DNA of 64,000 nucleotides from Planctomycetota bacterium. GTDB lineage: Bacteria; Planctomycetota; SZUA-567; H5-PLA8. The notes under the pieces are model-generated. The model was not told the DNA's origin, ran no database searches, and was given only the letters and a program-made list of their open reading frames with translations. Location: contig JBBRPR010000039.1 of NCBI GenBank assembly GCA_038227875.1, positions 17,349 to 81,348 on the forward strand. Reading direction: 5' to 3'. Positions 11,701 to 64,000 of the stretch are shown in pieces (within the stretch, counting starts at the first letter, position 1; each line of letters opens with the position of its first letter). The translations under genes were made by a program, and so were the position numbers.

Positions 11701-13716
11701 GTGAGTTTGAAGGCTGAAGGCTACACCATTCCCGCCGCGGACCTCGGCGCGGAGAATCCGCTGCCGGTCTTCCGCGAACCCCACGACGATTTCGTCATGC
11801 CGATGGACCCGGGTGCGACCGATGAAGAGCGCCGCTTCGTCGGCTGGCGCTCCAGCCGCCGCATCCTTCCCTACCGCATGCAGGACGGTTACACCCGCAA
11901 CCGCAAGCCACGGACGTTTCAGAGCTTCGTGCTCGAGAACGAACACCTCAAGGCGACGATCCTGCCGGAACTCGGCGGGCGCATGGTCTCGCTGTTCAAC
12001 AAGGACCGCGGCGTCGAGCTGCTCGAAAAAAATCCCGTCTTCCAGCCCGCGAATCTCTCCCTGCGCAACGCCTGGTTCAGCGGCGGCGTCGAATGGAACA
12101 CCACGATTCTCGGCCACTACTACATGACCTGCTCTCCGGTCTTCGCGGCGAAGATCACCGGCCTGCACGGAGAGCCGGCGCTGCGGATTTACGAATGGGA
12201 CCGCGTGAAGTGCTTCCCGTGGCAGATCGATTTCCATTTGCCCCCGGGTTCGAAATTTTTGTTCGTGCGCCCGCGCTTGATCAACCCGCACGCTCAGGAA
12301 TTGCCGATGTACTGGTGGTCGAACATCGCCGTCGAAGAGACGCCGGAGACACGTGTCCTGATTCCCGCCGAGACCGCTTTTCAGCACAACGGCAGCGCGC
12401 CGCTGGACATCATGCCGATGCCCATGCTCGAAGGCCGCGACATCATGTATCCGAAGAACGTCGACGCCGCGCGCGAGATCTATTTCCGCATGAAGGACGG
12501 CCAGCGCCCGTGGGTCGCCGCCGTCAACGGCGAAGGCCGCGGTCTGATCCAGGCCTCGACGGCGCGCTTGCAGGGGCGCAAGCTCTTCTATTGGGGCATG
12601 AACGCCGGCGGCCGCAACTGGCAGCGCTATCTGTCGGAAGCCGGCCACAATTACCTCGAGATCCAAGCTGGCATCGGCAAAATTCAACCCACCTGCATTC
12701 CCATGCCCGCCGATACCGAATGGACGTGGACGGAAGCCTACGGCGAACTCGCCGCCGACCCGAAAAAAGTTCATTCCAAAAACTGGAGTGAAGCCTGGCA
12801 GGCTGCGCAGGCCGTGCTCGACGCCGCGCTGCCGCAGGCCAAACTCACCGCGCTGAACGAAGACCTCAACACCTGCGCGCGCCAGGCGCCGCAGGAAGTG
12901 CTCTTCAAAGGCGCCGGTTGGGGCGCGTTGGAACGCAAGCGCGTCGCCGCCGCGGGACTTCCCGACAAGGTTCCCGCCGAACTGGTCTTCGATGTTTCAA
13001 CGCTCGGCCCCGATCAGGCTCCGTGGCTGGCGCTGCTGGAAAAAGGCGCGCTGCCGGAAGCGAGCGCGACGGCCGGCGATCCCGGGCAGTTCATGGTTCA
13101 ACCCGAATGGCTGTGGGCGCTGGAGCGCGCGCTGCAGGCCAAGCGCGGCGACAATTGGCTGGCGCGGTATCAGCAGGCCGTGGCGATGCTCGAAAACCAC
13201 GACGCCCTCGGCGCGCGCAAAGCCTGCGAAGCCTCGATCCGGCACACCCCCACCGCGTGGGCTTACCGTATGCTCGCCGTGATCGAACGCCGCAATGGAA
13301 AACTCGCGAAAGGCCTGGAGCTGCTCCAGAAAGCCTGGGAGGCCGGCCCACGCATCACCGCGCTGGCCATCGAGTACGCTCAGGCATTGATCGAAGCTGA
13401 ACGATTCCAGGAGGCGCGCGACTTCTGCACGAAACTGCCGGCCGAAATCAAGGCGCACGAACGCATTCTCATCGCGCAAGCACATGCCGCGCTGAAGACC
13501 GGGCACTACGATGAAGTCGAACCGATCTTCGCGTATCCGTACGCCACGATTCGCGAAGGCGAAGCGACGCTGGCCGAGCTCTGGTTCGCCTGGAACGAAG
13601 CCCGCATCGCCAAAACCGAAAACATTCCCCTCGACGCCCAACTGAAAGCCCGGGTAAGAAAGGAATGCCCCGTGCCGCCCAATATCGATTTCCGAATCAT
13701 CCTGGAAATCAACTGA
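11701..13716 (+). CDS. DUF5107-like domain protein with C-terminal TPR region
   Basis: LENEHLKATILPELGGR, NPVFQPANLSLRNAWFSGGVEWN, MYWWSNIAV, YLEIQAG; helical TPR-like C-terminus. Confidence 0.8.
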   Translation: MSLKAEGYTIPAADLGAENPLPVFREPHDDFVMPMDPGATDEERRFVGWRSSRRILPYRMQDGYTRNRKPRTFQSFVLENEHLKATILPELGGRMVSLFNKDRGVELLEKNPVFQPANLSLRNAWFSGGVEWNTTILGHYYMTCSPVFAAKITGLHGEPALRIYEWDRVKCFPWQIDFHLPPGSKFLFVRPRLINPHAQELPMYWWSNIAVEETPETRVLIPAETAFQHNGSAPLDIMPMPMLEGRDIMYPKNVDAAREIYFRMKDGQRPWVAAVNGEGRGLIQASTARLQGRKLFYWGMNAGGRNWQRYLSEAGHNYLEIQAGIGKIQPTCIPMPADTEWTWTEAYGELAADPKKVHSKNWSEAWQAAQAVLDAALPQAKLTALNEDLNTCARQAPQEVLFKGAGWGALERKRVAAAGLPDKVPAELVFDVSTLGPDQAPWLALLEKGALPEASATAGDPGQFMVQPEWLWALERALQAKRGDNWLARYQQAVAMLENHDALGARKACEASIRHTPTAWAYRMLAVIERRNGKLAKGLELLQKAWEAGPRITALAIEYAQALIEAERFQEARDFCTKLPAEIKAHERILIAQAHAALKTGHYDEVEPIFAYPYATIREGEATLAELWFAWNEARIAKTENIPLDAQLKARVRKECPVPPNIDFRIILEIN

Positions 13717-13774
13717 CCTCAGCGCGCTTCAATCCGCGCTTTCACATCGGCGGCGCTGACTTTACACTCCGCGC

Positions 13775-16006
13775 ATGGAATTCTGGCACCTCGCCATGGT
13801 GGCCGGCACGGCCACCTTCTCCATCCCCGTGCTCATCCACCTGATGTTCCGGATGCGGAAGAAACGCATCGTGTTCTCGTCGCTGCGTTTTCTGCAAAAG
13901 ACCGTGCTCGAAAAAACGCAGCGCATGCGCTTGCGCGAATGGCTGCTGCTGTTGCTGCGCTGCCTGGCCTGCATTCTCGTCGCGCTGGCGTTTGCGCGGC
14001 CGTTCCGGCCGGGGAGCGTGCTGGCCGGGTCCAACGGCAAGCCGCAGGAAGACGTCGTGCTCGTCATCGACGATTCACCGAGCTTGATGGCGCAGGAAAA
14101 TACCTCGATCCGCTGGAACGCACTGCTCGATCGCGCGCGGAAAGAAGTCGCGGGACATCCCACCGGCGACCGCGTCGGCCTGGTCTTCGCCAGCGATCCG
14201 TCGCGGGCGGAGGTGGAACTCTCCAACAATTTCGGCGCGTTCACCGTGCCGCTGCAGCGTGAACGGCCGTCGGCCAAGCGCGGCGATCTGGCGCAGGCCT
14301 TGAACACCGGCATCGAACTGCTCGTGACCTCGCAGCAGCCCTCGCGGCGGATCATCGTCTACACCGATCTTCAATCCAACCAGATCGACAAGGGCGCGTG
14401 GGCGGAAGCGGCGCAGAAAGCAGCCGCGGCCGGGCGCGGCATCGCGGTGCAGGTCGAAACGCCCTCTGGCGAACAACCGCAGCGATTGATGAATCTGGCG
14501 GTCACGGACGTGCGCGCGAAAAGTGATGTCTGGATCGACGGCCGGCCGATTCCGTTTGCGGTGCGCGTCGCCAACCACGGCGACGGCGACGTTGCGACAC
14601 TGGTCGTGAAGCTGATGTCCGACGGCAAGCAGCTCGCTTCGAAGAGCGTGGGTTTGAGTCCCCGCTCGACCCAGGAGATTGAACTCGCGGCGCCGTTTCC
14701 GCATCCGGGGGAAGTCTCCGGCTACGTCGAAATCGAAGCGCACGACGCCCTCCCCGACGACGACAGGCGCTACTTCGCGCTCCATCTGCGCGACAGCGTG
14801 AAGGCGCTGGTGATCGAAGAGTCGCTGCGCGAGAAGGAGACATTTCTCGACGAGAGTTACTACCTGCGCATGGCGCTGGATCCCCGCGCGCGCAACGGCG
14901 ATTCCATCAAGCCGGACACCAGTTCCGGCGCTCAGAGTTACGTGCAGGTGCAGTCGGTGGCGCTGCCCAAAGTCTCGGCGGAAATGTACGCCAACACCGA
15001 TCTCATTTTTATGACCGGCATCACGGTGATGACCGACGCGCAGCTCAAGCAGTTGGAGCAGGCCGTGCGCGATGGCAAAAATCTAGTGCTCTTCGCGGGG
15101 CGCAGCGACGGGCGGATCTCCGACGCGTTTTACAACGGACCGTTCTGGGACAACGGCAAGGGACTGCTCCCGGCGCGGCCGGGGAAGCTCTACGAAGGCA
15201 GCCGCATTGAGAAGCGCTACCATCAGCTCGGCGAATTCAAAGCCGATCACACCTTATTTAAGCCGTTTGTGGGCGAAGGTGAACCGTTCCTGCGACTGCC
15301 GATTTTCGTGCGCCACTTCCAAGCCAACCCCGCCGATCTGAAAGTCGGCTCGCCTGAACAGCCGATCGCTGGTGAAAAGGAAACACGTCCGGCCGGCCAG
15401 GTTCTGGCCACCTTCGGCGACGGCACCCCGCTGGCGATGGAACGCCCGTATGGCAAGGGCGCGGTGCTGATGTTCAACTTCGCCCCCCGCCCGGAAGCCA
15501 CGGACCTGGTCCAGCGCAAGGCTTTCGTACCGCTGTTACATCAAGCCGTGAGATACTTTGCAGGATCCAACGCGATCTCGCACCGGGTGGTGCTGGCCGG
15601 TGACAGCATTGACTTCGCCGACGGCGGCGTCACCGCCGACGTGGATGTCAAACTGACCACGCCGGAGAAAGCCAAGGGCATCTTGGCGCTGAAAGGCACC
15701 GATCATCCATCTGCCGATGCAGTCGGAGTTTACAGCGCTGAATTCGCCCGAGGGAACATTCTCGACCGGGCGCTCTGGGCCGCGAATCTGGACCCGCGCG
15801 AGAGCGACGTCTCGTCGGAAGACTTGGTCTCCATCCGCAACACCTTTGCCTCGACCACGTTGGATAAGAACCACGTGGCGCACAACCCCCTCGACAACCC
15901 CTGGGACGACGAACGGAAGTCCCAAGCCCCCGATTGGCGCTACTTTTTAGTGGCCGCTTTGGCCTGCCTGCTGTTAGAAGTTATAGTCCGCGATTTTTTA
16001 CGCTAA
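13775..16006 (+). CDS. BatA (N-terminal double-TM) + vWA domain membrane protein
   Basis: IPVLIHL...FSSLRFL...LLLLLRCLA...AFARP; vWA MIDAS DDSPS, YTDLQ; NLDPRESD; C-terminal TM WRYFLVAALACLLLE. Confidence 0.85.
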   Translation: MEFWHLAMVAGTATFSIPVLIHLMFRMRKKRIVFSSLRFLQKTVLEKTQRMRLREWLLLLLRCLACILVALAFARPFRPGSVLAGSNGKPQEDVVLVIDDSPSLMAQENTSIRWNALLDRARKEVAGHPTGDRVGLVFASDPSRAEVELSNNFGAFTVPLQRERPSAKRGDLAQALNTGIELLVTSQQPSRRIIVYTDLQSNQIDKGAWAEAAQKAAAAGRGIAVQVETPSGEQPQRLMNLAVTDVRAKSDVWIDGRPIPFAVRVANHGDGDVATLVVKLMSDGKQLASKSVGLSPRSTQEIELAAPFPHPGEVSGYVEIEAHDALPDDDRRYFALHLRDSVKALVIEESLREKETFLDESYYLRMALDPRARNGDSIKPDTSSGAQSYVQVQSVALPKVSAEMYANTDLIFMTGITVMTDAQLKQLEQAVRDGKNLVLFAGRSDGRISDAFYNGPFWDNGKGLLPARPGKLYEGSRIEKRYHQLGEFKADHTLFKPFVGEGEPFLRLPIFVRHFQANPADLKVGSPEQPIAGEKETRPAGQVLATFGDGTPLAMERPYGKGAVLMFNFAPRPEATDLVQRKAFVPLLHQAVRYFAGSNAISHRVVLAGDSIDFADGGVTADVDVKLTTPEKAKGILALKGTDHPSADAVGVYSAEFARGNILDRALWAANLDPRESDVSSEDLVSIRNTFASTTLDKNHVAHNPLDNPWDDERKSQAPDWRYFLVAALACLLLEVIVRDFLR

Positions 16007-16195: not shown

Positions 16196-19100
16196 ATGTC
16201 CACGGCCACCGATCCCACCCCTGTCGCGCCGCCACACTTGCGGCCGGAGGCGACGTCGGCGTTGTCGCAACTGGAGTCGCGTGTCGAAGGCGTGCGGCGG
16301 CGCAACCGCGGGAAGTTTCTGATCACAGGGTTGATGCTCAGTCTGTCGGTGGTCGTCTTCACGTTCCTGGGATTCAGCGCGGCGGACATCCTTTTCAAAC
16401 TGAGCGTCGGAACGCGGGTGCTGGCGCTGCTGGCTTCGTTTGCGGGCGTCGTGGCGGTGATGGCGTGGTTCCTGGTTCGGCCGTGGCGGAGCATGGGCGG
16501 CTCGGTGGAAGTTGCACGCTCGGTGGAAGACGCGTACCCGGAACTGGAAGAGCAGCTCTCGACGGCGTTGGAATTCGGCAAGGAACCGCAGCTGGTCGGA
16601 AAAGTCTCCAGCCCCGAACTGGTCGGCGCGCTGATGCAGCAGACGGCGCAGCGCGCGGAGCCACTGAACTTTTCGCGCACGATCCGCTGGAAGCCGGCGG
16701 TGCTCGCCGGGCTTGTCGCCTTCATGCTCGGCGCCTGCGTCGCGGCGTATTACCAGATCAGCCCACGTTTGTTTAAGCGCACCTTCGCGCGGTTCGTCAA
16801 TCCGGGCGCGAATGTCTCCGCGCCGACGCTGACGGAAATCACGCGCGTCACCCCCGGCGATTCCGAACAGCCGGTTGAATCGTCGGTGCCGGTGGAAGTG
16901 ACGCTCGATGGCCGCATGCCCGACCGCGTGCTGCTCTCGGTCTTCGTCGGCGATGAAAAGAACGAACGCTGGGAAGACCGCCCGATGGACCGCGGCGACG
17001 ACGGCGTCTACCGCGCCTCGCTCCACCGCCTGCTGGAAACGACGAAGTACAAGATTCTCGCCGGCGATGCGGAATCCGGTGAGTACAAGGTCGACGTCTA
17101 CAAGGTCCCGGAACTGAGCGAATTCGCGCTGCGTCTGGAATACCCGCAATACACCGGCAAGGCCCCCGAAACGCTGGCCCCTGGCATGGGCGATGTTCGC
17201 GCGCTGAAGGGCACGACCATCAATCTGGAACTCAAAGCCAACACTGATCTCTCCTCGGCGCTGGTGAAATTCAAGTCGGGCCGCCCGGACGCCATCGGGA
17301 TGCTCAACTCCACCGAACCGCGCAAGGCCACGATTCAATTCCGGCTCGAGAAAGACGACGAATACCAGGTCCAGCTGGCCAACACGCGCGGCAAGACCGG
17401 CGCGAGCACCTCGTACATGCTCAAGGCGCTGAAAGACCGCGCGCCGCGCGTCACGATCAAGGCGCCGGAACGCGACCTGATGGTCCACCGCGAACAGACC
17501 GTGACGGTTGAGATCTCCGCCGACGACGACATCGGCGTCGCGGAAATCGGCATCTTCCACAATCTCGGCGTCGACGAAGAGAAGCAGGTGATGGTGCGGA
17601 AACTCGATCCCGCCACGCCGCGCGCCGACGGCAAGCTGGTCTGGGAGCTGGGCAACCTCGGATTGAAGGGCGGCGAAGTCATTGCCTACTACGCCTACGC
17701 CTACGACAACGACACCGAAGACGGCAAGCATCTCTCCAAGAGCGAGATTCACTTCCTGACCGTCTACGACGAACAGGATTACAACGATCCGAAGACGCCC
17801 AAGCCCAAGAGCGGCGGAACGCCTCCGGCGGTCAAGCAGATCGACAAGCTGATCGAAGCCGAGAAGAAACTGGTGAAGGACACCTTCGCCCAGGCCAACG
17901 CAAACAAGGAAGCCAGCGTCACCAACCGTGAAGCTGAGAAGGCCTCCGCGCTGAAGACCGCCGACGCGCAGAAGGCGCTGAAGGTGAAGCTGCAGGACCT
18001 GATGGAGAAGGTCAAGACCGACATGGCGCAGGCCGAAGAGCAGCCCAAGGCGGAGAAGGAAGAAGACGGACCCAAGCCGCCCCAGCCTCCGCATCCCCAG
18101 CCGGCGGCGTTCGGCGAAAAAGAATTGAAGCACATGGAACAGGCCGTCGACAAGATGACCAATGCCGAGGATCGCCTGAAGGAACCCAACGCCACGGAAG
18201 CCGTGAAGCCGGAGACCGAAGCGCTGCGCCACCTGAGCGAAACGCGGCGGCTGCTGCTCTCGGATAAGGACGGTGACCCGCGCTTCAAGATGGCGATGGA
18301 CAAGCAGTCGAAGAAAAAGAAGCAGCAGGAGCAGGACCAGCAGCAGAAAGACCAGCAGGACATGAAGGAAGAGCTGGCCGAAATGCCGAAGATGCTGGAG
18401 CGCGAAAAGCAGACCGAGCGCGAACTGGAAGAACTCGAACAGCGCAAGAAGAAGTCGCCGCCGCCCCAGAACCAGGCTCAGACGCCGGAGCAGAAGGCCG
18501 AGCAGGAAAATCAGCGCCGCCTGCAGAAGCAGGTCAAGGATGAGCTTGAACAGCTCGCCAAGGAAGCCGAAGACCGCGCGCGCAAACTGGAACAGTTGTC
18601 GGGCCGCAATCCGGAAGTGCAGAACGCCGCCGACAAGATGCAGCAGGCCGCCGACAAGATGTCGCAGGCCGCCAAGGAAGCGCAGCAACCCAACGACAAG
18701 AACATGAAGTCGGCTCAGGAAAAAGCGCAGCAGGCCGGCAACGACATGAAGGAAGCGCAGAAGAACCTGCGCCAGGCTAGCGAAAAGCAGGTGCGTCAGG
18801 AACTGGCCAGTCTGCAGAAGGACGCGCAGGACCTCGCGCAACGCCAGCAGAACCTCGCGCAGCAGGCCCGCGACCTCAGCCAACCCAAACCGCAAGATTC
18901 CGGCAAGCCACAGGATTCAGGCAAGCCGCAGGACTCGGGCAAGCCGCAGGACTCGGGCAAGCCGCAGGACTCGGGCAAGCCGCAGGACTCGGGCAAGCCG
19001 CAGGATTCGGGCAAGCCGCAGGACTCGGGTAAGCCGCAGGACTCGGGCAAGCCGCAGGACTCGGGTAAGCCGCAAGATTCGGGCAAGCCGCAGGAATCGG

Positions 19101-60703: not shown

Positions 60704-60739
60704 ACCCCTCGCGCTTTAGCGCGCCGAGTGAAGCGACAC

Positions 60740-61180
60740 ATGGCCATACCACTTACATATTCCTTCCGCAGCGTCGCCATCCGCAAGGGCTCTTCGGCGA
60801 TGGCCGTCGGCGGAATTGCCCTAGTGGTCGTGGTGCTGGTGGCGATGCTCTCGCTGGCCGCGGGAATCAAGCACGCGGTAGCGTCTTCGGGAAACCCCAA
60901 CAACATCATCGTGCTGCGCAAAGGGGCTGACGCGGAATTGCAGAGCCTCGTCTCGCGCGACGCCACGCGCGTGCTGCGCGAAATGCCGTTTATTGCCGCC
61001 GACTCCGAGAACCGCCCGCTGTTGATTCCTGAAAGCGTAATCATCCTGTCGCGGACCAAGCTGGGCGGCGGTGACACGAATGTCTCTGTTCGTGGCACGC
61101 CGGTTGATTCCCGCCGCGTCCGCCCCGACGTGGCGCTGACGAAAGGGCGCTGGTTCACGCCGGGAACCAACGAAGCATGA
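60740..61180 (+). pseudogene. ABC transporter permease (MacB/FtsX-like), truncated by insertion
   Basis: MAIPLTYSFRSV...GGIALVVVVLVAMLSL...GNPNNIIVLRKGA...NVSVRG...GRWFTPGTNEA* ends inside the periplasmic domain with no C-terminal TMs; composition turns AT-richer immediately after. Confidence 0.85.
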
Positions 61181-61361
61181 AGAATAACGGCGTAACTCGT
61201 TGAACGACGGCGTTATTGGTGGGAAGTGATTGGATCTCGCTGCCCTTCCGCTCGCGAAACCGAGGTCCGGGCCGGGTAAATGTGGGTGTTTTGATGGGGT
61301 TGTCGAAGATTTCTAGTTCAACCTCAGTGATATAATAAGGTATACCGATATAGATTATGGT

Positions 61362-61727
61362 TTAACCCGCGTCGATCTGTCGTGCTGGTAGTACACCGCC
61401 TCCTCTCCGACGAACCAAAAGGCGGTCAATAAGTATCTCCACAGCCTCTTTATCGGCATCTTGTAAGTCTTTCATTTTGTTGACGATACGTAGTGAATTT
61501 CTATCGATTGCAATAGGTCCTGAATTCTCTCCGGTCAATAGCCAATCGACGGTCACGCCCAATGAACGGGCAAGCGCCGTAAGGTTTTTATGGTTCGGAT
61601 CTTTCTTCCCGCTCTCCCACTCATTCACAGCCTTTGTCGACACACCGACTTGGGCCGCGAGAGCGGTCTGCGTTAGTCCCAGAGAGTTGCGAGATTTCCG
61701 CAACCTCTCCGGAAGAGAGTTACCCAT
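61362..61727 (-). CDS. XRE-family HTH repressor (CI-like)
   Basis: LPERLRKSRNSLGLTQTALAAQVGVSTKAVNEWESGKKDP...LARSLGVTVDWLLTG; ATG 61727 with GGAGGA RBS. Confidence 0.92.
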   Translation of the reverse strand: MGNSLPERLRKSRNSLGLTQTALAAQVGVSTKAVNEWESGKKDPNHKNLTALARSLGVTVDWLLTGENSGPIAIDRNSLRIVNKMKDLQDADKEAVEILIDRLLVRRRGGGVLPARQIDAG

Positions 61728-61797: not shown

Positions 61798-61875
61798 TTG
61801 ACCAACATAACCAATGGGTTATAACCCATAGGACTAAAGGACTTTCTTAGGTTGTCCTAGGAACCTAGGACAACC
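61798..61875. promoter_or_regulatory. Divergent switch region: rightward promoter and operator palindromes
   Basis: TTGACC(61798)-16-TATAAC; perfect palindrome ATGGGTTATAACCCAT (61814-61829) over the -10; GGTTGTCCTAGG-AA-CCTAGGACAACC (61850-61875). Confidence 0.7.
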
Positions 61876-61893: not shown

Positions 61894-64000
61894 ATGATTG
61901 ATCTAACGAAGCTCACCTTCATCTTAAACTCGCTTGACCTTCGGGTTACGGAAACAGCCAAAGCAATTGGTATTTCCCAATCGCACTTAAGCAACATACT
62001 GATTGGCCGAGACAAGCCGTCTTTAGACGTTGTGCAGCGGCTTGAAAATAATTTTAAGCATGCGTGGTTGGAGCGGCGCGGAGAAACAGTTCCACCAGAA
62101 GTTCAACGCATTGTCTACGAACTCCTCTACCCGCCCGCGCCATTCAACCCGTTCGATGGACCGCGTAAGCCCGGCCGCCCAAGCAAATCAAAAAACGACG
62201 CGGCCCCGGAAGCGCCGGGGCTTGAGCCCAACCGAAAACCCGAAGGCGCTGCGGCGCAGATGGAGAGCTATGGCAACGAAACTTCCGGCGAAGGTCAGGA
62301 AGCAACTGGCAGCGATCTTGAAACGGCATCCGGAAACCACACCGGCGATGGTCCGCGCGCATCTGAATCCTCGCGACGCGTTCGGACAGCCGCTTCGCAA
62401 AGTGAAAATGAGCGATTGGGAAATCGCGCGATCCGAATGGCGGCGCAAGATAGCAGCCAAGGCTTACAGGGAAGCTGTGGCCGCTGGACTTCTGAAGACA
62501 TCAATGACGTCTACCGTGCCGCGCAAATCCGCGCGCGGCTGACGGATGAAGTTCCTAACGTCACGCGACACCGCAATCAATTCTATGAATGTATCCGCGC
62601 GGAACTGCCGGGATGGCTGAAAGGCTCAACCACTAACAACGCGATCAATAAAATTCTCGGTCGCAAGCTCAACGTCAAGCTTCGCGCGCGCAGCGCCGAC
62701 GCAGTGAAGACGCAGGGCAAGGCGATGATCGCTGCGTACACCCTGCGCATCGCCGCGAAGATCGAAAGTGATGGCCACGCCAAAGGCGCATACTCCTACC
62801 GCGCGTGGATGGACCTGCGCGCGACGCTGCTTTCGATTTGGGATCAGCCCGAAGCGAAGGCGAAGATCTTCGAAATCTACGGGCAGGAAATTTCCTACCC
62901 GACCTTTGAGCGCATCTTCCGCGCCGAGTTCGGTGGCGTATCGCCGATGGAACGGGCGGCGAAGGTCTATGCGGCAGAGACCCTTGGCTACGAGCCGGAG
63001 TACGCGGGCCAAACGATCCAGATGGACGGCACGGAATTCCCGGTCGACGTCGCGACCGCATGGGGACGTTCGCGCGCCAACGGCAACGTTGCCCAGATCG
63101 CGGCGTTCATCATCGACACCGCGTCACTCAAAACATGGATGCATGTCGAAGGCAATACCTCGGAAGTTTACCTCTGGAATCCGATCATCCGAAAATTCTT
63201 GGAGAGCACGAATTACTCTCCCGAGTTTTTCGTCACGGACGAAGGCGGTCGCAGCATCAACTCACTGCGCCATCAAAAGCCCGGCCAGCCACTCACGATG
63301 GACAATGCTATCCGACTGCTCACGGCCATCGGAACGCGGCCACACACGCACACGCCTGGACTCCCGCGCGCGAAGGGCACCGTCGAGTGCGGCGCGGTGA
63401 AGGCGGGGAAGTCCACGCTGAAGCGAGTGCTCTCCGGACGCTTCGTCAAGGCCCTGCTTTCTGAAATCAAAAACCTTCCCCCGTCGTACCGCTGGGTGGA
63501 GACCGAGAGCGAATGGCGCGGCATCATCGCCGAGGTTGAAGCCTCACTGAACGCGCGCACCGTCAAGCGTATCGGCGATGGCACCTTCACCCGCAACAGC
63601 GCGTGGGACCTTCCAGAGTATCAGGCGCGCCGCGCTGAGCGCGCGCTCGTTGCCGACTGGCGCGACCGCTGGGAGACGATTGCAACGCGCGGCTTCGCGA
63701 TGCAAGTCATCGGCGAAAACAAACTCTACTGGAAAGGCGCGCGCGCCGAACTCCGCGCGCCGCTCGGTCACACGGTCAAGGAAGGATCGGTCGCGATCCT
63801 CTTTCCCGGTGGCCTGCGCGCCGGTGATGACCAACACGGCGACGATCTGCTGCGCGGCGTGATCATCGAACAGACCAACGGCCAGCCCCAGTATCACCAG
63901 ATCGAGGCGCTCAAGGTTTCTAAGAGCTTCCTCGGGTTTGAAAACGACCGGCCCAAGATCAGCGAGCACCCAGTCGCCAAACCGCAGACGGACAAACAGC
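61894..64000 (+). CDS. Cro-like HTH fused to MuA-like DDE transposase (partial; >702 codons, runs off window)
   Basis: Manual translation, no stop: MIDLTKL...VTETAKAIGISQSHLSNILIGRDKPSLDVVQRL (HTH); catalytic QTIQMD(378)GT, FFVTD(449)EG, PRAKGTVE(498); GAGGTG RBS. Confidence 0.85.
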   Translation, partial: MIDLTKLTFILNSLDLRVTETAKAIGISQSHLSNILIGRDKPSLDVVQRLENNFKHAWLERRGETVPPEVQRIVYELLYPPAPFNPFDGPRKPGRPSKSKNDAAPEAPGLEPNRKPEGAAAQMESYGNETSGEGQEATGSDLETASGNHTGDGPRASESSRRVRTAASQSENERLGNRAIRMAAQDSSQGLQGSCGRWTSEDINDVYRAAQIRARLTDEVPNVTRHRNQFYECIRAELPGWLKGSTTNNAINKILGRKLNVKLRARSADAVKTQGKAMIAAYTLRIAAKIESDGHAKGAYSYRAWMDLRATLLSIWDQPEAKAKIFEIYGQEISYPTFERIFRAEFGGVSPMERAAKVYAAETLGYEPEYAGQTIQMDGTEFPVDVATAWGRSRANGNVAQIAAFIIDTASLKTWMHVEGNTSEVYLWNPIIRKFLESTNYSPEFFVTDEGGRSINSLRHQKPGQPLTMDNAIRLLTAIGTRPHTHTPGLPRAKGTVECGAVKAGKSTLKRVLSGRFVKALLSEIKNLPPSYRWVETESEWRGIIAEVEASLNARTVKRIGDGTFTRNSAWDLPEYQARRAERALVADWRDRWETIATRGFAMQVIGENKLYWKGARAELRAPLGHTVKEGSVAILFPGGLRAGDDQHGDDLLRGVIIEQTNGQPQYHQIEALKVSKSFLGFENDRPKISEHPVAKPQTDKQ
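62190..62225 (+). promoter_or_regulatory. Candidate -1 programmed ribosomal frameshift signal
   Basis: In-phase A_AAA_AAC (62190-62196), 6-nt spacer, stem GCCCCGG-AAGCG-CCGGGGC (62203-62221), -1 frame TGA at 62223-62225. Confidence 0.6.
62270..62542 (+). CDS. Small basic protein (90 aa) overprinted in +1 frame within the transposase ORF
   Basis: GGAGAG RBS then ATG; MATKLPAKVRKQLAAILKRHPETTPAMVRAHL...WEIARSEWRRKIAAKAYREAVAAGLL; codons in this frame look more gene-like than the main frame here. Confidence 0.55.
   Translation: MATKLPAKVRKQLAAILKRHPETTPAMVRAHLNPRDAFGQPLRKVKMSDWEIARSEWRRKIAAKAYREAVAAGLLKTSMTSTVPRKSARG

Follow-up and report, generated by a model that had tools for sequence, protein, structure and literature searches.

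A helix-turn-helix head fused to a MuA/TnsB-type transposase in a Mu-like prophage of Planctomycetota, and the slippery heptamer behind it

Does an early gene of a Mu-like prophage give one transposase, or does it also give a free DNA-binding regulator through a -1 ribosomal frameshift? The question is raised by a 64,000-nt stretch of a Planctomycetota genome (G000:C39:17349-81348; in the following called the window), whose last open reading frame (ORF) joins an XRE-type helix-turn-helix (HTH) domain to a transposase and carries a slippery heptamer, A_AAA_AAC, and a hairpin just past the DNA-binding module. Here we report that the fusion is real and conserved, and that it belongs to the early region of a Mu-like transposable prophage lodged inside a MacB-like permease gene. 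The ORF probably has a single product, with an incidental slippery site and stem. That product would be one polypeptide of about 736 aa, in which an XRE-type HTH and its basic G-R-P arm are joined through a long, floppy linker to a DDE transposase of the MuA/TnsB type; its HTH head would be an integral part of the transposase and the positional counterpart of the separate enhancer- and operator-binding head of MuA.

The source metagenome-assembled genome (MAG) consists of 176 contigs and is 88% complete. The window stops where contig C39 stops, within the transposase gene, and is continued by the reverse strand of contig C92, with which C39 shares an exact overlap of 141 bp.

The fused gene and its relatives

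The gene and the parts of its product are arranged as follows (window positions, with the strand in brackets).

61894..63999 (+): single HTH-linker-transposase ORF, frame open from 61888, running off the end of window and contig; 34 further aa on C92 (- strand), about 736 aa in total
61927..62055 (+): XRE-type HTH, aa 12-54 (Pfam HTH_3, 30.5 bits against a cut-off of 23)
62161..62196 (+): basic patch PRKPGRPSKSKN, AT-hook-like, with a G-R-P core and K/R flanks; conserved in the alignments of the family
62197..62478 (+): disordered linker, aa 102-195, poorly conserved; about 44 to about 200 codons long among relatives
62479..63999 (+): DDE transposase body with the predicted MuA/TnsB fold (AlphaFold2 model, Foldseek); D378 at 63025-27, D449 at 63238-40 and E498 at 63385-87

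By the structural match of its model, the body is a MuA/TnsB-type DDE transposase. The AlphaFold2 model was built from an alignment of 60 relatives and reached a mean predicted local distance difference test (pLDDT) score of 91.1, and its best Foldseek matches in the PDB, at a probability of 1.00, were TnsB (8rdu, 7svw, 8ea3; E=2.4e-11 for 8rdu_R) and MuA (4fcy, 1bco). D378, D449 and E498 are the only invariant columns among the 60 sequences, and their spacing fits a DDE triad. At the level of sequence, the 507 body residues in the window had no Pfam match and a weak match to a PHROG transposase family (E=3e-4); Pfam rve (PF00665) did not match the window protein and matched 1 of the 60 members of the alignment (A3; E=1.6e-4), and tblastn with the body as query found nothing among 50,697 phage records. 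A PDB sequence profile search with the window protein matched the HTH alone, and weakly (434 repressor/Cro and lambda-repressor-like chains).

An AT-hook has a G-R-P core with basic flanks. The corresponding stretch reads RKPGRPSKSK in the window protein, and KRGPGRPRK, PRGPGRPKGK and RGRGRPAKK in aligned relatives; the row of L025 in alignment A5 played no part in this reading.

The same fusion was found well beyond the window. Head, linker and body share one open frame beside a divergent repressor gene in eight other loci (L005, L006, L009, L013, L015, L025, L029 and L035). The database protein P0001 (723 aa; 72% identity to the window protein by BLASTP, 74% in the alignment) has the same architecture, as do P0002 and P0003. 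An exhaustive profile search of 1.84 billion representatives recovered 91 proteins or clusters, 62 of them at E <=1e-30; in alignment A3, which opens with the headless body piece of the window, HTH_3 scored in 17 of 60 members. With the window genome left out, relatives were found by profile A1 in 5/8 and 7/16 genomes of its family, and by profile A3 in 9/16 genomes of the family and in 1/2 genomes of a sister family; none were found in 392 other genomes sampled from the phylum. A search of genome contigs with alignment A4 returned three Planctomycetota MAG loci, at the same positions as the loci of G402, G066 and G221, and the metagenome and viral contig collections yielded no further relative loci. 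P0005 and P0006, which were considered as body-only products of split genes, proved to be gene calls with internal starts, made within the fused ORFs that L005 and L006 carry. A word-indexed search found no stand-alone close homologs of the head (55-177 aa) at E <=0.001. One database source labels a member of the family merely a 'transcriptional regulator'.

These results uphold the preliminary description of this DNA, which had placed HTH and transposase in a single ORF of more than 700 aa. They refute the alternative it had allowed for, namely that an error in an A7 run masks a separate cro gene, since the same fusion occurs elsewhere. Both the A6 run and the continuous frame are correct because the main-frame peptide directly after the A-run is conserved, reading NDAAPEAPGLEPNRKPEGAAA in the window and NESAPELPGLEPERKTEGAAA in P0001, with 16/21 residues kept.

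An assembly or sequencing error, or a decaying gene, would nevertheless have accounted for the locus in another way: with a true A7 or another indel, a separate cro-like gene would end at 62225 and the transposase gene would lie further on. The MAG is fragmented, the contig ends inside the gene, and the homolog in L007 is visibly frameshifted in a C-run. The sequence evidence at the A-run, Logan contigs from four DNA runs of one study, bears on the suggested check of A6 against A7 at 62190-62195: no indel is listed there, but the listed pieces of the main run break at 62186/62196. Against an error stand the stop-free common frame of head and body in nine independent loci and many database proteins, the peptide kept in P0001, and the relatives, in which no start codon is seen from which a separate transposase could begin with a conserved N-terminus. 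We therefore find an error or decay at this site hardly credible.

A second ORF lies over the linker in the +1 frame (62270-62542, 90 aa, MATKLPAKV...) and might be a real gene overprinted on the linker or, via a further shift, the true N-terminus of the transposase. It begins with an ATG that has a Shine-Dalgarno (SD)-like GGAGAG just upstream, its peptide is helical-looking and not of low complexity, and the G + C content of the linker by codon position (0.64, 0.61 and 0.52 when read in the main frame) agrees with the +1 frame no less well than with the main one. However, the peptide has no Pfam match and a marginal PHROG match (E=0.006 over 12 residues), and nothing similar was found in the rest of the genome or in 13 homologous loci read in all frames (best E=0.62); the linker indels of relatives are in-frame and keep the main frame, and long alternative open frames are common in such GC-rich DNA. 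A coding role of this ORF is very improbable. Even taken together, readings other than a single product or a programmed -1 frameshift are unlikely.

Three further observations concern the head and the linker. The G + C content at third codon positions is 0.52-0.53 in HTH and linker (61894-62478) and 0.73-0.77 in the body (62479-63999); given this contrast, head and linker may have a history different from that of the body. In the linkers of L005 and L007, a peptide motif (F-S-x-S-V/M-R-E-N ... D-R/Q-P/T) recurs two or three times, which implies DNA repeats within the linker-coding region. The homolog in L007 (G328:C1) is disrupted: past the C-run, the conserved PPEV...LWPPPP stretch is found in the -1 frame and the C-terminal part lies in another frame, while a frame of 1148 codons is nonetheless open across the GC-rich DNA. 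The break is due to either decay or homopolymer errors.

The heptamer, the hairpin and the short -1 frame

The signals that suggest recoding follow the basic patch directly.

62190..62196 (+): slippery heptamer A_AAA_AAC, in phase (codons TCA 62188-90, AAA 62191-93, AAC 62194-96)
62200..62225 (+): hairpin (GCCCCGG 62203-09 / CCGGGGC 62215-21, loop AAGCG) and -1 stop (TGA 62223-62225)

The site is as the preliminary description had it, with the heptamer in phase, a 7-bp GC stem 6 nt on (spacer GACGCG) and a -1 TGA at 62223. Translation of the -1 frame from 62190 (KKRRGPGSAGA*) also gives the predicted shifted product of 110 aa. The hairpin was folded by RNAfold with 8+2 pairs at -17.5 kcal/mol.

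With the full anatomy of such a cassette present, the locus could be read as a programmed -1 frameshift of the dnaX type. Some ribosomes would slip at A_AAA_AAC, aided by the hairpin, and terminate at TGA 62223-62225, releasing a free 110-aa protein of HTH and basic arm, while unshifted ribosomes would give the full transposase. The short form would regulate the same operators in the manner of Ner/Cro or of InsA from IS1, and relatives would reach the same outcome via other, non-homologous heptamers nearby, with predicted short products of 95-114 aa. We consider this reading possible but doubtful, for reasons that lie partly in the site itself and partly in the related loci.

The 4721 long ORFs of the window genome contain 5246 in-phase heptamers, among them 347 of the form A6N and 80 of the form A6C. 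A perfect stem of at least 7 bp at a distance of 4-9 nt follows 5 of the 347 A6N sites, a 40-nt minimum free energy <= -17 was obtained for 12, and a -1 stop falls within 12 codons in 73. The combination of a stem of at least 7 bp and a -1 stop within 15 codons occurs at 1 of the 347, so about one comparable cassette per genome is expected by chance, and a given 64-kb window will seldom have one. The hairpin ranks at 0.029 among the sequences 3' of all in-phase heptamers and at 0.017-0.032 among synonymous resamples of the same peptide, but given its composition it is nothing unusual (dinucleotide shuffles of the 60 nt gave z = -1.13, with 27/200 shuffles equally stable).

The site is also expected to be a weak one. 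According to PMC5009743, A_AAA_AAC is a weak shifter in Escherichia coli, where G_GGA_AAG and C_CCA_AAG are strongly shift-prone. The window genome has two kinds of tRNA-Lys gene (CUU 4, UUU 2), so that AAG-type sites should be less slippery here, going by what the review says of species with a single tRNA-Lys. A weak site fits poorly with the earlier proposal that the element sets its Ner:MuA ratio by recoding, as a product of a few per cent could hardly do so.

The comparison with relatives covered nine loci (the window, L005, L006, L009, L013, L015, L025, L029 and L035) and a patch of 40 codons after the HTH. Had the heptamer been conserved, as the preliminary description proposed to check, A_AAA_AAC would recur in place; it is not at the homologous position in any of the eight other loci, nor is any other heptamer. 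An in-phase heptamer was nonetheless present in the patch of 6/9 loci, and in 5/9 it is followed by a -1 stop within 20 codons:

Window: A_AAA_AAC, -1 frame of 11 codons
L013: C_CCA_AAA, -1 frame of 18 codons
L015: A_AAG_GGG, -1 frame of 7 codons
L029: G_GGA_AAG, -1 frame of 4 codons
L035: C_CCA_AAA, -1 frame of 6 codons

In the remaining four loci (L005, L006, L009 and L025), no heptamer leads into a short -1 ORF. L006 encodes K-K-K as AAG AAG AAG, and the -1 frames entered from the heptamers of L025 are 179-184 codons long. A search of viral contigs for the cassette pattern returned 0 matches.

The number of loci or heptamers was compared with several null models of codon choice:

Genome codon usage: 5 loci observed, 1.05 expected, P=0.001
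Synonymous permutation of the first 170 codons: 4-5 loci, 1.20-1.65 expected, P=0.005-0.017 (for 5 loci, 1.42 expected, P=0.005)
The same permutation without the discovery locus: 4/8 loci, 1.35 expected, P=0.026
Permutation inside the 40-codon patch, all heptamers: 9 observed, 5.76 expected, not significant
Permutation inside the 40-codon patch, heptamers with a -1 stop within 20 codons: 5 observed, 2.87 expected, not significant

Several of these observations weigh against a single product with incidental signals. Heptamers with short -1 frames recur just past the DNA-binding module in five of the nine loci, in excess over the first three null models, and the excess is phase-specific (9 in phase against 4.1 expected, 6 against 5.9 in the two other phases). 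Heptamers are about 12 times denser in the patch (9 in 360 codons) than in the rest of the genes (10 in 4783) or in the HTH (0 in 676), whereas ordinary genes of the window genome avoid them (observed/expected 0.46), as do the HTH (0 against 2.4 expected) and the remainder of the fused genes (10 against 17.9). L013, a distant relative, has a cassette of textbook appearance: GGAGG lies 10 nt upstream of C_CCA_AAA, and 6 nt past the heptamer comes an 11-bp stem (-22.9 kcal/mol, rank 0.0023 among post-heptamer sequences) with the -1 stop just beyond it. In both the window and L013 the most stable 40-nt fold of the entire linker lies 6 nt past the heptamer. To this can be added the Logan contig of a diverged relative that is identical to the window over 62190-62225 (36 nt) and then resumes at 62836, although 9/30 letters upstream of 62190 differ, five of them at third codon positions. 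This island may reflect nucleotide conservation over the cassette, or a recombination joint at the A-run together with a deletion beside the palindrome. Short forms consisting of the HTH only also exist (108 aa in L016/P0070, 97 aa in P0078), and PMC5009743 describes two heptamers, G_GGA_AAG and C_CCA_AAG, as highly shift-prone in E. coli.

On the other side, four of the nine loci lack a cassette and the sites are not positionally conserved. L015, L029 and L035 have unremarkable downstream folds (-10.2, -7.2 and -12.1 kcal/mol), and all thresholds for the cassette were set after the data were seen. The excess is not significant under the strictest local null; this conservative, patch-only permutation indicates that local codon choice carries most of the signal. 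Programmed frameshifting is still a serious rival, in view of the cassette of L013 and of heptamers that recur in phase and lead into short -1 frames. It is conceivable, if tentative, that a family of planctomycete Mu-like prophages merged ner/cro into the transposase gene and regains a free regulator by a dnaX-style -1 shift, at a site reinvented in the fast-evolving linker (A_AAA_AAC, C_CCA_AAA, G_GGA_AAG).

Under the preferred reading of one fused protein, the heptamer would be a by-product of the Lys and Asn codons after the basic arm, and the stem a by-product of the GC-rich Ala, Pro and Gly codons of the linker. The two together would cause background slippage at most, and we infer that programmed shifting is absent.

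Two further contigs from the same sample differ from the window in the linker. One variant contig skips 222 nt in frame (62184 to 62407), with loss of heptamer and stem; this is a single contig with 28 letters on one side of the joint. In another, the likeness to the window begins exactly at the first body codon (62480), with unrelated sequence before it. It seems that several related elements, differing in their linkers, are present in the sample.

The immunity region and the prophage

The region upstream of the fused gene comprises the following features.

60728..61180 (+): truncated MacB-like permease gene of the host, its 5' part of 150 aa being left; marks the left prophage junction
61181..61361 (no strand): left end of the prophage with paired motifs at 61182-61200 / 61202-61220 and inverted arms at 61183-93 / 61207-17 (repeat families D2 and I6)
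61362..61727 (-): gene for a cI-like repressor of 121 aa (start codon ATG 61727), oriented divergently to the transposase gene
61811-61832 and 61850-61875 (no strand): two palindromes between the divergent genes, from the repeat search

The permease ORF matches Pfam MacB_PCD (E=2.3e-8) over profile positions 1-114 of 207 only and ends at TGA 61178-80; the presence of just the first 114 of 207 positions, followed by a stop, indicates that the element was inserted within the permease gene. From their position, the paired motifs of the left end are candidate end-binding sites of the transposase. The repressor matches HTH_3 (E=7e-15), Phage_CI_repr (E=4.4e-5) and PHROG families of transcriptional repressors (E 1e-16 to 1e-18). 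The palindromes have arms of 11 nt at 91% (I7) and of 12 nt at 100%, 2 nt apart (I3), and their location makes them candidate operators or a candidate enhancer.

The head of the fused protein would bind these palindromes and thereby tether the transposase near the left end. Bound there, it would probably also auto-regulate the divergent promoters, and such autoregulation would make a separate ner gene unnecessary. The label 'Cro/Ner' of the preliminary description is an interpretation; the domain is an XRE-type HTH, and an enhancer- and operator-binding head of the MuA type fits the position equally well.

Phage morphogenesis genes lie downstream on C92, with a terminase large subunit (E=3.3e-87) and a portal protein (E=2e-58). 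Together with the truncated host gene, the divergent repressor and the transposase of predicted MuA/TnsB fold, they bear out the earlier view of a Mu-like element. PHROG and Pfam assigned no family to the two ORFs that follow the transposase (223 and 219 aa), and no MuB-like AAA+ ATPase was recognised, though no fold test was made. A short-word blastn search with the left end gave chance matches only, and neither the right end of the prophage nor a target duplication was found; a 16-nt match on contig C28, considered as a right end, lies in an unrelated gene and was dismissed as chance.

Two other genes of the prophage are located on C92 (L003). The early operon contains a second HTH_3 protein, three ORFs after the transposase (17614-18126, - strand, 170 aa), which could have a Cro/Ner-like or an activator function. 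An ORF of 150 aa (13513-13965, - strand) matches phrog_4786, 'cysteine dioxygenase' (E=7.5e-51), and is a possible auxiliary gene.

The repressor gene itself varies in the sample. In one contig of the main sequencing run, 61312 is joined straight to 61705, a 392-bp deletion (61313-61704) that takes out nearly the whole repressor gene. The branch that keeps the repressor has a depth of 18.8, against 34.4 for the shared piece beyond, and accordingly about half of the copies in the sample may be without it. A remnant immunity region was found in L016 (G402:C77, 643-1827), where a 260-aa LexA-like repressor stands beside a divergent 108-aa ORF with HTH and basic patch; host-like genes follow, and the transposase is absent.

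Comparison with known systems and significance

The element resembles phage Mu in several respects. In both, a divergent repressor gene and operators, here candidate ones, adjoin the left end, the element is inserted within a host gene, and the body, to judge from the model, has the fold order of MuA (DNA-binding helical domains, RNase H-like core, beta barrel). In both, a separate N-terminal DNA-binding head is carried on a flexible tether; domain I of MuA touches the ends and the enhancer by separate regions, and the enhancer overlaps the repressor operators O1-O3, as stated in PMC3145075. Unlike Mu, the present element has no separate ner gene between repressor and transposase and no recognised MuB-like ATPase, its linker of about 95 aa is hypervariable, and its body has no sequence-level match to MuA, with kinship indicated by structure only. 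The head of MuA is a winged helix, whereas the head here is an XRE-type HTH with a G-R-P basic arm.

The DNA-binding part of a transposase alone can serve as a regulator, according to PMC5009743. In IS1 (InsA / InsAB') and IS3 (OrfA / OrfAB), DNA-binding and catalytic modules of the transposase are likewise joined via a slippery site. A6C is the shift site of IS1; in both IS1 and IS3, however, unshifted ribosomes make the short regulator and the shift makes the transposase, whereas in the present gene it is the full transposase that arises without a shift, and the short form that would arise with one.

The layout of SD-like element, heptamer and stem in L013 is similar to that of dnaX. The dnaX site, A_AAA_AAG, is efficient and occurs in species with a single tRNA-Lys, whereas the window has A_AAA_AAC, no upstream SD-like element and two kinds of tRNA-Lys. 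In dnaX (tau/gamma), as in the putative shift here, the protein is truncated after an N-terminal functional part, as PMC5009743 describes for dnaX. TnsB of Tn7 and of CRISPR-associated transposons is the best structural match of the body (8rdu_R, 7svw_B, 8ea3_X), but the context here is a phage with terminase and portal, and no TnsA/TnsC-like neighbours were recognised.

A transposase of MuA/TnsB fold that carries an XRE-type head, in an element that lacks a separate ner, was detected in this analysis in a single planctomycete family and a sister family only. Within the library and the terms searched, no paper dealt with an HTH-headed MuA-type transposase or with frameshifting in one. Should the frameshift prove real, transposable phages would join the users of recoding, and this would be the first MuA-type transposase known to be under recoding control. 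Its logic would be inverted, with the shift making a short DNA-binding inhibitor and not the enzyme, and it would be relevant to the way in which the inhibitor-to-enzyme ratio is set in transposons.

With or without a shift, the locus defines an unannotated branch of MuA/TnsB-type transposases, whose body is covered by no Pfam family and in which the place of the usual transposase head, and of a separate ner gene as well, is taken by an XRE-type HTH with its basic arm. It offers a simple model in which binding to the immunity region would be coupled to transposition in the phages of a poorly studied phylum.

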